Source of the DNA: Myxococcales bacterium
GTDB taxonomy: Bacteria > Myxococcota_A > Polyangia > Polyangiales > Polyangiaceae
Direction of reading: 5' to 3'
DNA: 64,000 nt
Assembly (NCBI GenBank): GCA_016703425.1
Contig: JADJCA010000011.1
Span: forward strand, 122,050 to 186,049
In this document: in pieces, positions 44,711 to 51,267 of the stretch
How positions within the stretch are numbered: position 1 is the stretch's first letter
Layout of the letters: the number at the start of each line of letters is the position of its first letter
Made by a program: the position numbers and the translations under genes
Notes under the pieces: generated by a model
What the model was told of the DNA's origin: nothing
The model's input: the letters and a program-made list of their open reading frames with translations, nothing else
Databases searched by the model: none

Positions 44711-45565
44711 CTAACGCGTCAGCGCCGCACGCGCTGCCGTTAGGGCTTCGTCACGCCACGCGTAGAGTTCCTGCTCGCGCACGCCTTCGCGGGCGGCGAC
44801 CTTGGCCGGCGAAAGACCAAGGGCGAGGTCTAGGATCGCCGCGAGCTTTCGGTCGACGGTGCCCGGCGCTGCCGGCGCCAAGGGCCTTTGAAGCGAGAGC
44901 GGCGTCCTCTGCCACGACAGGAGCCGCACGAGCTCGCGGTCGTCGCCCGAGAAAGCGCGGCGGCCATGGAGCATGCGAAAGTTGTCGACGAGGAGCAGCT
45001 CACCGGCGGCGAGCAGGAACTCGATGCGCGGCGCCTTCGCCACAAAGGCGGCAAAGCGAGCCCCGATGGAGTCGCTGGCATCGAGGGGCATGGGAGAGAC
45101 CGTCAAGATGGGGGCCCCGGTCGCGTGGCGACGGGCCGTGGGGCCCACGAAGTCTCCAAAGTAGAACGGGATGCGGCGCGGGACGTCGAAGAGCGCGCGG
45201 TAGAGTTCGCTGTCTTCGCGCTCGACGGTCGCCAAGAGGCGCGCACCGTCGACGAGCTGGCATTCGCCGCCGGAAGGCGCGGGCCTTCGGCACCACATCA
45301 CCTGGAGCGCGGGTGCGTTTCCCAGGTACGGCTGGCTGTCGGTGTGCATCGGCGTCACGACGTTCGTCGATGCGAAAGAGCGCCCGCCAGGGACACTACG
45401 AATCGTCTGCCGCTCGACCATCAAGGGCCGCTCGCCGACGAGCGCCTCCACGAAGGAGAAGGGCTCGCTGAGCAGCGACGCGTCGAAGGCTCCGCTCGGG
45501 AGCACGACGAAGCCGCGCTCCGCCAACGGCGCGCGAACGTCCTCGACGCTGCTCCGGACTGTCAT
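44711..45565 (-). CDS. TauD/TfdA-family Fe(II)/2-oxoglutarate-dependent dioxygenase
   Basis: HxD facial-triad motif in TPMHTDSQPY and the second-His/2OG-Arg region in FRMLHGRRAF. Size is about 280 aa. Lies 10 nt downstream of the preceding cluster gene. Confidence 0.7.
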   Translation of the reverse strand: MTVRSSVEDVRAPLAERGFVVLPSGAFDASLLSEPFSFVEALVGERPLMVERQTIRSVPGGRSFASTNVVTPMHTDSQPYLGNAPALQVMWCRRPAPSGGECQLVDGARLLATVEREDSELYRALFDVPRRIPFYFGDFVGPTARRHATGAPILTVSPMPLDASDSIGARFAAFVAKAPRIEFLLAAGELLLVDNFRMLHGRRAFSGDDRELVRLLSWQRTPLSLQRPLAPAAPGTVDRKLAAILDLALGLSPAKVAAREGVREQELYAWRDEALTAARAALTR

Positions 45566-45575
45566 GAGCGGGCTG

Positions 45576-47009
45576 TCATGAGAGCGCTCCGTCGAAGCCG
45601 CCTCGTTCGAACGAGAAGGTGCTCGTGAGGAGCCACGACGGCACCGCGAAAAGGTGCGCCAGCGGTTGGCCGCTGGGCACGTCGATGGCGCGATCGACGT
45701 GGGGAAGCTGGAAGACCGCCGGCGTGGCGTGAAAGCGGTCGGTCTCGATGACGCCGCGCATGACGTCGTAGCCTGCGCCGGGGATGCCTTCGATGAGCGT
45801 CGCGGTGCCCTTTGGCGTGTGCACGAGGGCGGCGGGCTTCACGAAGAAGTGGGCCTCGCCTCGCGGGTGAGGCGTCACGTATTTCGTCAGGTAGAGCAGC
45901 GCTCCTTCGTGCGGCGCATCGCCGGACGCCGCGCGGGCGGCCATGAGCGGCTGCCATCGGCTACGGACCTCGGCGGCGAAGCGCGCGAGCTCGTCTTTGT
46001 CGGGCTCCACGGACAAGTCGAGGCCATCAAAGCGCGCGCGGAATGAGACGGCGTTGTCGACGGCGAGGCGATCGGCTTCGCCTTGGTAGGGCGAGGGGCC
46101 ATCCGGCCCATGAACGCTCTCGGCCTTCTCCTCACGAACGGAGCGCGGACCGCCGAGCGCGACGGAGAGCGCTGCCTCCGCCGGGTACGCTTCTCGCGGC
46201 GCGACGGCCGCCGACGAACGCTCGCGCCGGTACTTTCGCGAGACGTCGCCGCCGCGTTTCGTCGCAAAGTAGTTCGCGTCGTAGAACGCGAGGTGCGCGG
46301 CCGTCACGGAGGGCGTGTCCTCGATGGCGCCGACGGCGAGGCGCGTCGTCGCCAGAAGCGGTGCCAGCGTCGCGATCTCACCGGCGAGCGCGAAGGTGTC
46401 GGTGTTGGCCTCGAGCTCGAGCACGAGCGGCGTGAAGCGCTCCGTGTCCAAGATGAGCGCTTCTCGCGCTTGGTACGCGAAGGAGCGGCGGTTCTTGATC
46501 ATCGACTGCCGGAGCCGAAGGCCCGGCGCGGGCCGCACGAAGAGCCCCGTAAAGAGGAAGAGCCGCGGCGCTTCTCGACGCACCGCTTGCCCGAAGCGAA
46601 CGGCGAGCGGCGCGGGCGGTGGAGCGCCGACGATGTTCGCGGCAAAGAGCTCGCTCCAGTGAGCATCGGGAGACAAGAGCCCTCGCGCGTGAAGCATCGG
46701 GAGGTTCGCGCGGTGGAGCCGAGCGAGATCGCCCTCCCCGTCGAAGGAGACCGCGTAACCGCGCCCGCGGCGAGACACGTCGAGGCGCTTCGAGAGCGCC
46801 ACTTGGAAGCCGTAGGCGTTCCCTTCAAGCAGAGGCGCACATGCCTGGGCCACGCGAAGGGGCACGCTTCCGCCGAGGGTGCCGTCGCGGCGCTCGAGGC
46901 GACAGAAGCCACCGAGGACGTCGATGACCTCGAACGCTGGCGCGTTGCCTTCCCCGGCGACGCGCTCGCTTTCGCCTCGACGGGGCGCGTCCAAAGGCAC
47001 GGCGATCAT
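45576..47009 (-). CDS. hypothetical protein (478 aa) in the MNIO cluster
   Basis: ATG 47009 (MIAVPLDAPRRG) overlaps the stop of the upstream membrane-protein gene (ATGA). Balanced composition and high GC3. No family recognised. Confidence 0.55.
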   Translation of the reverse strand: MIAVPLDAPRRGESERVAGEGNAPAFEVIDVLGGFCRLERRDGTLGGSVPLRVAQACAPLLEGNAYGFQVALSKRLDVSRRGRGYAVSFDGEGDLARLHRANLPMLHARGLLSPDAHWSELFAANIVGAPPPAPLAVRFGQAVRREAPRLFLFTGLFVRPAPGLRLRQSMIKNRRSFAYQAREALILDTERFTPLVLELEANTDTFALAGEIATLAPLLATTRLAVGAIEDTPSVTAAHLAFYDANYFATKRGGDVSRKYRRERSSAAVAPREAYPAEAALSVALGGPRSVREEKAESVHGPDGPSPYQGEADRLAVDNAVSFRARFDGLDLSVEPDKDELARFAAEVRSRWQPLMAARAASGDAPHEGALLYLTKYVTPHPRGEAHFFVKPAALVHTPKGTATLIEGIPGAGYDVMRGVIETDRFHATPAVFQLPHVDRAIDVPSGQPLAHLFAVPSWLLTSTFSFERGGFDGALS

Positions 47010-50217: not shown

Positions 50218-50250
50218 GCGCCGGAGGTTAGCCGACCGGCGCGACGAACG

Positions 50251-51267
50251 TCACGCCTTCGTGACGAGCTCGTCGGTGAGCCGAAGCGCGATGCCGGCCT
50301 GGTTGTAGCCGACGCCGGAGCCCACGAGCACCACGAGCTGGCCCGCCTTGGCCTTGCCGCTCACGATCGCGTCGTGGAGCGCCATGGGAATGCAGGCCGA
50401 GCCGGTGTAGCCCCACTTGCCCATGATCATGTGCGCCTTCTCCACGGGGACCTCGAGCCGCTGCATGACCTTCTCGATGGTGCGCTTTCGGACCTGCGTG
50501 AAGATGAAGTGATCCACGTCGCGGAGCGCGAAGCCGTTGCGCTCGGCGAGCATCCGGGCGACGGCGGGCCAGCCCTCGTCGTTGACCTCCGGCGGGTACT
50601 TCTCCGTCATGCGCACCTGCGTGCGGCCCGACATGAGCCCTGCAGCGCTCGCCGGCTCGGCGGTGCCGCCGCTCATGATGCCCCACATCTTGGCGAAGGA
50701 GCCGTCGGCGCGGTAGGCCGACTGCATGAGGCCCGGCTTCGCCGACGGCTGAAGGACCGCCGCGCCGGCGCCGTCGCCGTAGAAGAAGATGGCCGTGTCG
50801 TTCTCGTCGGCCAGCTTGTGCATCATGTAGGCGCCGATCACGAGGACGTTCTTCATCCACGGGTTCTGCGTCATGAGGCCGGCGGCGGTGCCCATGGCCG
50901 TGGGGAACGAAGCACAGGCGCATCCGACATCGAAGGTGCCGGCGCGACGCGCACCGAGCTTGTCCTGAACCACGACCGACGTGGCCGGCGTGATGTAGTC
51001 GGGCGAGTCGGTGCCGACGAGGATCATGTCGACGTCGTCGGGACCGATGCCGGCGCGCGTCATCGCCTGTTTTGCGGCGCGCACGCAGAGGTCGCTCGTG
51101 GCCCACGACGGCGGCGCGTAGAAGCGCGTCTTGATGCCCGTCGACGCCTCCATCTTGGGCACGAAGTCGGGGTTGTCCGCCGCGAAACGCTCATGGAGCT
51201 TCGCGTTGGTGATCTCGATCTCGGGCACGTAGAAGCCGGTGCTCTTGAGGGCCACGTGGGTCGTCAT
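50251..51267 (-). CDS. fabH: 3-oxoacyl-ACP synthase III-like (KAS III / FabH family)
   Basis: Thiolase-fold N-terminus (MTTHVALKSTGFYVPEIEITNAKLHERF) and active-site Cys region (FDVGCACASF). C-terminal His/Asn region (GKWGYTGSACIPMALHDAI) and GSGVGYN. Lies 33 nt upstream of the DUF692 gene. Confidence 0.7.
   Translation of the reverse strand: MTTHVALKSTGFYVPEIEITNAKLHERFAADNPDFVPKMEASTGIKTRFYAPPSWATSDLCVRAAKQAMTRAGIGPDDVDMILVGTDSPDYITPATSVVVQDKLGARRAGTFDVGCACASFPTAMGTAAGLMTQNPWMKNVLVIGAYMMHKLADENDTAIFFYGDGAGAAVLQPSAKPGLMQSAYRADGSFAKMWGIMSGGTAEPASAAGLMSGRTQVRMTEKYPPEVNDEGWPAVARMLAERNGFALRDVDHFIFTQVRKRTIEKVMQRLEVPVEKAHMIMGKWGYTGSACIPMALHDAIVSGKAKAGQLVVLVGSGVGYNQAGIALRLTDELVTKA

Follow-up and report, generated by a model that had tools for sequence, protein, structure and literature searches.

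The stretch of DNA analyzed here, referred to as the window, is 64,000 nucleotides of contig JADJCA010000011.1 from a Myxococcales bacterium with a genomic G+C content of 70%, and our subject is a run of six open reading frames (ORFs) on its minus strand, at 44711-51267, with G+C contents at third codon positions (GC3) of 0.83 to 0.94. In the order of transcription, these encode a KAS III-like protein (50251-51267), a 470-aa enzyme of the MNIO (DUF692) family (48805-50217), a minimal nucleotidyltransferase (NTase; 243 aa, 48055-48786), a polytopic membrane protein ending in a tail of Cys and Gly (350 aa, 47006-48058), a conserved 477-aa protein (45576-47009), and a TauD/TfdA-type Fe(II)/2-oxoglutarate dioxygenase (284 aa, 44711-45565; TauD in the following). 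The genes are separated by 33, 18 and 10 nt or joined by two 4-bp overlaps. A preliminary description of this DNA had given the same coordinates, families, gaps and 4-bp overlaps, and these stand with two corrections: the overlap between the NTase and membrane-protein genes is GTGA (with a GTG start), ATGA occurring only at the overlap between the membrane-protein gene and the next one, and the product of the latter has 477 residues rather than 478. The operon has clear boundaries, with a RarA/MgsA gene on its upstream side and the convergent hpt and TPR genes on its downstream side. We consider below whether the MNIO enzyme acts on the tail of the membrane protein encoded in the same operon.

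Homologous loci were gathered by scanning species-representative genomes, which gave 241 confirmed places; 80 loci were fetched, and those with at least 6 kb present downstream of the MNIO start (n = 68) were treated as informative and searched by tblastn with the six window proteins. Five of the six genes, in the order MNIO, NTase, membrane protein, 477-aa protein and TauD, recur together as a cassette. All five are collinear in 52 of the 68 informative loci, which belong to different species, and the recurrence of this arrangement is far beyond chance. The preliminary description had proposed comparing the neighborhood of MNIO, Gly/Cys-tailed membrane protein, NTase and TauD across Myxococcota, and this neighborhood is indeed conserved. 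The membrane protein is found in 65 of these loci, directly after MNIO or the NTase and often with overlapping stop and start codons; the NTase is found in 59, always between MNIO and the membrane protein, and TauD in 53. Reduced cassettes consist of MNIO and the membrane protein alone (three loci) or of these two with the NTase (four loci), and some lineages can do without the three accessory genes, for the NTase, the 477-aa protein and TauD. One metagenome-assembled genome (MAG; DASTPP01, Polyangiaceae SMAG_U2200) carries two reduced cassettes (numbered L059 and L075 in our survey), both with MNIO and the membrane protein and without the NTase.

The genes around the cassette change from lineage to lineage, without a sixth gene that is widely conserved; the neighbors include a Rieske oxygenase gene in Sorangium, a LysR gene in locus L087 and rarA in the window. 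Because the KAS III-like gene is absent elsewhere and the flanks are lineage-specific, we take the five-gene cassette as the unit and the KAS III-like gene as a local neighbor. The hosts are almost all Polyangia, with many Sorangium strains, including S. cellulosum So ce56, So ceGT47 and So ce26, and with Paraliomyxa, Labilithrix, Nannocystaceae, Kofleriaceae, Haliangiales and Pendulispora albinea among the others. The cassette was also seen in MAGs labelled Vicinamibacteria, Acidobacteriota, Actinomycetota, Brocadiaceae and Thermoanaerobaculia (L013, L015, L016, L021 and L085), with MNIO identities of 53 to 62%; these reflect either mis-binned myxobacterial contigs or horizontal transfer.

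The MNIO enzyme is readily recognized. Its catalytic TIM barrel (residues 1-265, 49423-50217) matches PF05114 (MbnB_TglH_ChrH) with 252.6 bits over residues 6-265, against a cutoff of 25, and the DUF692 assignment of the preliminary description passes the profile search that it had suggested. Ten residues, H57, H92, E138, D171, N174, H202, D215, H217, E244 and D246 (the Asp of LLERD), are invariant in 26 family members and align with the HG, SxH, EN, DxxN, HxAG, DTH and ERD positions of 3BWW, TglH and MbnB; single residues can presumably be assigned to particular iron sites as in the MbnB structures. In FonB, one of the thiooxazole-forming MNIOs, the Asp of the ERD motif has been proposed to act as catalytic base. 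By sequence, the catalytic domain is nearest to BufB, HvfB and 3BWW, and not to TglH, ChrH or MbnB. BufB, HvfB and FonB make 5-thiooxazole copper metallophores, which were named captophorins (Gadgil et al. 2026), and 3BWW, the nearest solved structure (E = 1e-24), derives from an MNIO-PME1 gene cluster of the captophorin type. The best NCBIfam scores, 192.7 bits for BufB and 164.4 for HvfB, lie below the respective equivalog cutoffs of 310 and 360, and by these thresholds the enzyme is not a captophorin-type equivalog.

Approximately 200 residues follow the catalytic domain. The preliminary description had noted them as a long C-terminal extension; the extra residues are there, and their fold now suggests what they are. 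The extension gave no match in Pfam at E ≤ 10 or in a profile search against PDB sequences, and in fold searches residues 292-470 (48805-49344), a helical bundle with a small β-sheet, found as best matches TglI, DUF2063/NGO1945 (3dee) and MbnC, that is, three solved MNIO partner proteins. It has the make-up of the PME-type 2, TglI and MbnC-like partners, a DUF2063-like helical domain plus an RRE-type or truncated β-sheet, related to 3dee. Judged from the fold, the extension is a fused partner or recognition domain, and the protein is a natural MNIO-partner fusion. A separate DUF2063-RRE partner (PME1) with the DUF2063 signature was not found for the cassette. The fused form of about 450 aa is widespread: 748 relatives at E ≤ 1e-10 were found among the scored candidates, and the best 120 are all 424 to 512 aa long. 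No natural fusion of this kind was found in the MNIO literature searched, in which the only fusions described join MovX to a winged-helix domain and an MNIO to a nitroreductase. High activity was shown for an artificial fusion of HvfB with HvfC, which mimics the complex of the two, and the active state, a mixed-valent diiron center, requires the partner (Manley et al., bioRxiv 2026.07.17.739211); that construct resembles our protein in holding MNIO and partner in one chain, but it was engineered, whereas the fusion described here is natural and shared by hundreds of proteins. PF26136 is listed in precomputed annotations for some fused MNIOs (P0054, P0057, P0096, P0106 and P0113); it was not reported by the Pfam copy used here and may model the partner domain.

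The membrane protein has hydrophobic segments at about residues 18-36, 190-209, 220-239 and 278-296 and the C-terminus SSCSSSSCGGGGGCGGGGGCGGGGGCG, in agreement with the preliminary description of a protein with four transmembrane segments and a Gly/Cys tail. That description had suggested a comparison with TIGR04222, and the outcome is divided: the window copy stays below threshold, but 35 of 41 orthologues match TIGR04222 at E ≤ 0.01 (best 4e-16), those of L003 and L005 scoring 34.9 and 38.8 bits along almost the full profile, and one homologue was named "TIGR04222 family" by JGI. The layout, several transmembrane segments followed by a low-complexity Gly/Ser/Cys C-terminus, is that of TIGR04222 proteins as well. 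Through the orthologues, the family is homologous to TIGR04222, and the protein probably belongs to a divergent branch of it. The acidic N-terminus contains no Lys or Arg, loop 1 has 12-23 of them, loop 3 has 5-8 and the tail 0-2; based on this distribution and the positive-inside rule, the loops are predicted to be cytoplasmic and the N-terminus and the tail to lie outside. When 1.84 billion representative proteins were scanned exhaustively with HMMER, using the first 300 residues as the query, no more than 154 relatives emerged (a word-indexed homology search with the same residues gave one match); the close ones have Ser/Gly/Cys tails, and the distant ones (E > 1e-15) mostly lack a cysteine tail. 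A profile of the membrane protein matched PDB sequences only through low-complexity Gly/Ser linkers.

The tail (residues 326-350, 47009-47083) has the form C-S4-C-(G5-C)3-G. Orthologues are about 33% identical to the window copy (median), and their C-termini are nearly alike; the tail is the most conserved part of the protein. Among 69 complete orthologues, 46 end exactly with C-x4-C-(GGGGGC)3-4 followed by S, G or GG, and approximately 12 more differ only in a C-x5-C spacing, with (G5C)3; in the family alignment, the tail Cys and Gly are among the few invariant or near-invariant columns. A looser pattern (C-x4-C plus two to four G5C repeats) is matched by 49 tails, for which the DNA exists in 48 different versions; as synonymous changes and AGC/TCG serine codon switches in these lead to one and the same peptide, the tail peptide is under purifying selection, and both a slippage artefact of DNA repeats and compositional drift are ruled out as its origin. 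About one-third of the tail Gly codons are GGT, GGA or GGG rather than GGC, despite the 70% G+C and a GC3 around 0.85, and this mix is consistent with selection against perfect, slippage-prone DNA repeats.

Some tails depart from the rule. L003 (10092-11240) and L004 (10092-11222) have identical MNIO proteins and differ in the number of G5C repeats (three and two, respectively), due either to a real polymorphism or to an assembly collapse. The tail in L008 ends in GGGGGW rather than GGGGGC-S. Reduced or divergent cassettes (L055, L059, L063, L072, L075 and L076) tend to have irregular tails, such as (G6-8C)n with Asp/Ser-rich linkers or repeats of GSGSGGGGSSC.

We also looked for another substrate. 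A conventional small precursor peptide was ruled out by a search of the intergenic gaps, the small Cys-containing ORFs of the window and the 80 loci: neither the gaps nor these ORFs yielded a precursor, and among the 80 loci no small Cys-containing ORF is conserved, all clusters being shadow frames within the five cassette genes. A Cys-rich precursor with a Sec signal, as found in captophorin clusters (DUF2282, EGKCG or Cys-Lys), is likewise missing from the cassette. The membrane protein is the sole ORF with a Gly/Cys repeat in the 64 kb. Both of the corresponding statements in the preliminary description, that no small precursor ORF is evident and that this tail is the only Cys-rich candidate, thus extend from one genome to the family, and none of the three outcomes that it had named as fatal to its idea (no DUF692 match, loss of the tail with MNIO retained, a small precursor gene adjacent) was seen. 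The tail is, as far as can be read from these sequences, the only credible substrate, and it is likely that MNIO modifies it.

A conserved short C-terminal core behind a variable Ser/Gly linker is also how leader-core precursors are built, and the membrane protein might thus be a giant anchored leader from which the modified tail of about 25 residues is cleaved, for instance after α-hydroxylation of Gly by TauD or by a periplasmic protease, to release a small soluble Gly/Cys-derived peptide of the RiPP type, made on the ribosome and modified after translation. The conservation of a TauD-type hydroxylase would suit this, as would the composition, which is like that of Gly/Ser/Cys-rich heterocycle peptides such as microcin B17, although the latter matched only at chance level. 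However, there is no conserved protease or exporter in or beside the cassette, L029 and L038 retain the same tail without TauD, and no sign of cleavage was seen, which makes release of the tail improbable.

Which chemistry would be applied to the tail is suggested by the enzyme and by the peptide. Thiooxazole-forming MNIOs favor a Cys-Gly dyad (Gadgil et al. 2026), and the tail, with its cysteines in G-C-G context, offers such dyads. By analogy with BufB, HvfB and FonB, the MNIO product may be a thiooxazole, to which we assign slightly less than an even chance. The same tail could instead be turned into oxazolone-thioamides, lose β-carbons, or acquire Cys cross-links or macrocycles, which the NTase, the 477-aa protein and TauD may elaborate further. 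We consider such alternative chemistry unlikely, though far from negligible, as the catalytic domain is nearest to BufB, HvfB and 3BWW rather than to TglH, ChrH and MbnB, and as the Cys-Gly context suits the thiooxazole enzymes. It should be added that MNIO chemistry is broader than stated in the preliminary description, according to which all characterized members modify Cys: ApyH acts on Asp, MovX on Asn and PbsC on Phe (Leprevost et al., Microb Genom 2025, PMC12452194, Table 1).

The three accessory proteins can be assigned to folds or families. The NTase matches PF01909 with 28.8 bits (cutoff 21) through an N-terminal core of the Pol-β type, followed by approximately 140 uncharacterized residues; it carries the G-S...D-x-D motif YGSAARGDYREGESDVDV, and its YGSAARGD...DVDV aligns with 1wot. 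Weak NCBIfam matches to MntA, ANT and CBASS cyclase models did not reach any subfamily cutoff, and a role in anti-phage defense was discarded, PADLOC having given generic NTase-core matches only. The 477-aa protein has no Pfam or NCBIfam family match and no sequence-level match to dUTPase models; according to a Foldseek comparison with the PDB, it has a tandem β-barrel fold like that of dUTPase and dCTP deaminase. TauD matches PF02668 with 80.7 bits (cutoff 27); its nearest solved structures are TmpA (6npb) and γ-butyrobetaine dioxygenase, and its H-x-D...H facial triad is present, MHTDS and LHGRR aligning with HTD and LHAR of 6npb. The last 55 or so residues of TauD (44711-44880, minus strand) resemble a helix-turn-helix, with weak HTH_Tnp_1 and HTH_23 matches at residues 236-275, and end in ELYAWRDEALTAARAAL, an ending shared by the TauD of L045; this extension could be a peptide/protein-recognition or a DNA-binding module.

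In the MNIO literature searched, none of these three proteins was found as an MNIO partner. The preliminary description had called the KAS III, NTase and TauD proteins foreign to known MNIO pathways, and this is right for the NTase and TauD, which are conserved here and undescribed there, while the KAS III-like protein does not belong to the cassette. We infer that the accessory proteins probably tailor the substrate or assist in its modification, for example by nucleotidylylation or hydroxylation of Ser. With two of the five proteins having nucleotide-related folds, and with the nearest relatives of TauD hydroxylating small trimethylammonium compounds, one could also imagine that the NTase, the dUTPase-like protein and TauD run a small-molecule or nucleotide pathway, for which the membrane protein serves as anchor or transporter and in which MNIO acts on a non-peptide substrate. 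This is very improbable: all characterized MNIOs act on a ribosomal peptide or protein (PMC12452194), MNIO and the membrane protein form the smallest conserved unit, in which the other three genes are absent, and the extreme conservation of the tail would be left without an explanation. There is, finally, a distinctly unlikely extension of tail modification, in which the tail is converted to a run of Cys heterocycles by the fused MNIO and then nucleotidylated by the NTase, assisted by a nucleotide-binding dUTPase-fold protein, or hydroxylated by TauD, a kind of protein modification not seen before that would have a role beyond copper buffering. If that were true, the decorated tail might serve in metal sensing or delivery, in membrane redox chemistry, or as a surface toxin or adhesin in predatory myxobacteria.

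Our overall proposal, which in our judgment stands about an even chance of being right, is that the five-gene cassette modifies the tail of the membrane protein to yield a membrane-tethered array of thiooxazole metal ligands. On insertion of the 350-aa TIGR04222-like protein into the membrane, its acidic N-terminus would face outward and its large loops would be cytoplasmic; the final hydrophobic segment and the C-S4-C-(G5-C)3 tail would be the last parts to leave the ribosome. The cytoplasmic MNIO, with its fused TglI/DUF2063-like domain, would then dock on the membrane protein, a plausible docking site being the strongly conserved motif YLxWLDDxTxSLRxDVxSGRR that precedes the final hydrophobic segment. 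Each of the tail's five to six cysteines would be oxidized to 5-thiooxazole in a four-electron oxidation, by analogy with BufB, HvfB and FonB, and the NTase, the tandem dUTPase-like protein and TauD might act as cytoplasmic tailoring or assembly factors on the Ser/Gly-rich tail. The modified tail would be displayed at the membrane surface, on the periplasmic side if the fourth segment spans the membrane, where its row of tethered soft ligands could bind copper or some other thiophilic metal. A function in handling copper or another metal is put forward tentatively.

Several observations weigh against this proposal. As the NCBIfam scores of MNIO are below the BufB and HvfB equivalog cutoffs, its chemistry could differ from theirs. 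The window's own membrane protein has no NCBIfam match even at E ≤ 10 (the TIGR04222 cutoff is 43 bits), and its fourth hydrophobic segment is rich in Ala and Gly and may not span the membrane. Judged by eye, the cassette enzymes have no hydrophobic N-terminus resembling a signal peptide; with the tail predicted to be periplasmic, modification must then precede translocation. No conserved metal-responsive regulator or copper gene adjoins the cassette in the related loci. Characterized MNIO pathways offer no explanation for what the NTase, the dUTPase-like protein and TauD do, and the presence of these three could mean that the product is not a simple thiooxazole array. In the literature searched, no experimental demonstration of any of the proposed steps was found. 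Lastly, MNIO is retained without a nearby membrane-protein gene in three of the 68 loci. In two of these, L045 (9938-13722) and L080 (9495-12216), the fused MNIO is followed directly by the dUTPase-like gene, and in L045 by TauD also, while genes for the NTase and the membrane protein are missing from the locus; this arrangement suggests either that MNIO and the 477-aa protein are functionally linked or that the substrate gene is unlinked.

The latter two loci also count in favor of another reading, in which the tail works unmodified, as a thiolate metal-binding or redox tail, and the enzymes act on a target encoded elsewhere or on another part of the membrane protein; so does the lack of any MNIO in one-third of the genomes with TIGR04222 genes (PMC12452194). 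Against this, the membrane protein follows MNIO or the NTase directly in nearly all informative loci, often with overlapping codons, MNIO bears a partner domain of the peptide-recognition type, and no other conserved Cys-containing ORF is present. An unmodified tail is thus quite improbable, and modification of the tail by MNIO is retained as the working explanation in the following comparison.

That membrane proteins of the TIGR04222 type, with periplasmic Cys-rich tails, include MNIO substrates is not a new thought. Subsets of them were proposed as such from genome analysis by Leprevost et al. (PMC12452194), who found that approximately 40% of the Cys-containing proteins without signal peptides beside MNIO genes are TIGR04222 proteins, that the associated MNIOs are close to the bufferin and oxazolin enzymes, and that their partners are of PME-type 2 or apparently absent. 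The core of the idea in the preliminary description is thus a published hypothesis; the novelty claimed for a membrane-tethered substrate does not hold as a concept, and the NTase and TauD partners were not described in that work. Its main text makes no mention of Myxococcota, TauD, dioxygenases or nucleotidyltransferases. In its survey table, So ce56 has five MNIO, three DUF2063, four DoxX and zero TIGR04222 proteins, although this strain carries the cassette (L041, NC_010162 at about 2.558-2.564 Mb). Our system shares with the published set the polytopic protein with an unstructured Ser/Gly/Cys tail predicted to face the periplasm, an MNIO near the bufferin and oxazolin enzymes, and the lack of both a partner gene with the DUF2063 signature and a signal-peptide precursor. 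It differs in that the published cases are mostly from Actinomycetota and have separate PME-type 2 partners or apparently none, whereas our cassette has a fused partner, a tail with a fixed motif of 24-25 residues, and a conserved NTase, dUTPase-like protein and TauD.

Compared with the captophorin systems (BufABC, the HvfABC oxazolin and the FonABC fontiphorin systems), the cassette has the closest catalytic domains, the ERD Asp, a repeated Cys motif with Cys-Gly, the requirement for a partner protein, and a product destined for the periplasmic side in common. Captophorin precursors, however, are soluble proteins with Sec signals and DUF2282, EGKCG or Cys-Lys features, their PME1 partner with DUF2063-RRE is separate, and DoxX is frequent, while the cassette has an integral membrane protein as its candidate substrate, a G5C repeat without Lys or Glu, a fused partner without the DUF2063 signature, no DoxX and three extra enzymes. 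In the TglHI system (pearlin/3-thiaglutamate), TglI is a separate subunit and the substrate TglA is a small peptide having just one Cys, at its C-terminus, and the window MNIO is far less similar to TglH than to 3BWW, BufB and HvfB. MerC-bufferin chimeras and the lipoprotein-type Buf2 bufferins are also predicted to be membrane-anchored MNIO substrates with the modified domain in the periplasm (PMC12452194), but they contain recognizable bufferin domains, are served by standard BufB/BufC, and have no homology to the TIGR04222-type protein. Distinctive here are the invariant core peptide, the natural fusion of enzyme and partner, and three new conserved partners.

Whether MNIOs act on genuine membrane proteins, and how MNIOs seemingly without partner genes can work, are among the open questions in PMC12452194. 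The cassette provides a clean test case for them, with enzyme and partner in one polypeptide and a fixed target of 24-25 residues, and it is present in cultured, genetically studied strains (So ce56, So ce26, Pendulispora albinea and Paraliomyxa miuraensis). It also links an NTase, a dUTPase-fold protein and TauD to MNIO chemistry, and it shows that signature-based surveys miss a whole branch of TIGR04222. If the product is a membrane-tethered thiooxazole array, copper buffering of the captophorin kind would extend from soluble periplasmic peptides to membrane-anchored proteins, and to a different phylum.

The KAS III-like gene (50251-51267), which the preliminary description had counted as a member of the system, occurs in none of the 68 informative loci, nor in L087, the nearest relative that is not identical, where a LysR gene occupies its position. 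With the gene in no related locus, membership of KAS III in the pathway is ruled out. The protein matches PF08541 and PF08545 and scores 210 with NF006829 (cutoff 249). In alignments to 4dfe and 4ryb, its nucleophilic Cys is kept, and the catalytic His and Asn are replaced by Thr (HQAN to TQVR) and Tyr (GNTSAA to GYTGSA), respectively; the Cys-His-Asn triad and the equivalog-level score of FabH/KAS III enzymes are thus both lacking. Judged from these replacements, it is unlikely to be a decarboxylating condensing enzyme. The gene is probably co-transcribed with the cassette in the genome of the window only. In 12 Sorangium loci, and in L030 at 7936-8859, the gene just upstream of the cassette on the same strand encodes a Rieske/KshA-like oxygenase, a genus-specific neighbor.

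A scan of the operon region for σ70 promoters and terminators gave nothing above the expectation from shuffled sequences. A 14-nt direct repeat, AATGCTGCGKTGCA, has two matches in the window, both in the 98 nt that separate rarA from the KAS III-like gene, at 51289-51302 and 51346-51359 on the minus strand, with a spacing of 57 nt. No match of this kind was obtained in 100 shuffles, and the pair, upstream of the KAS III-like gene at 51289-51359, may be an operator or an element of a promoter other than the σ70 type.

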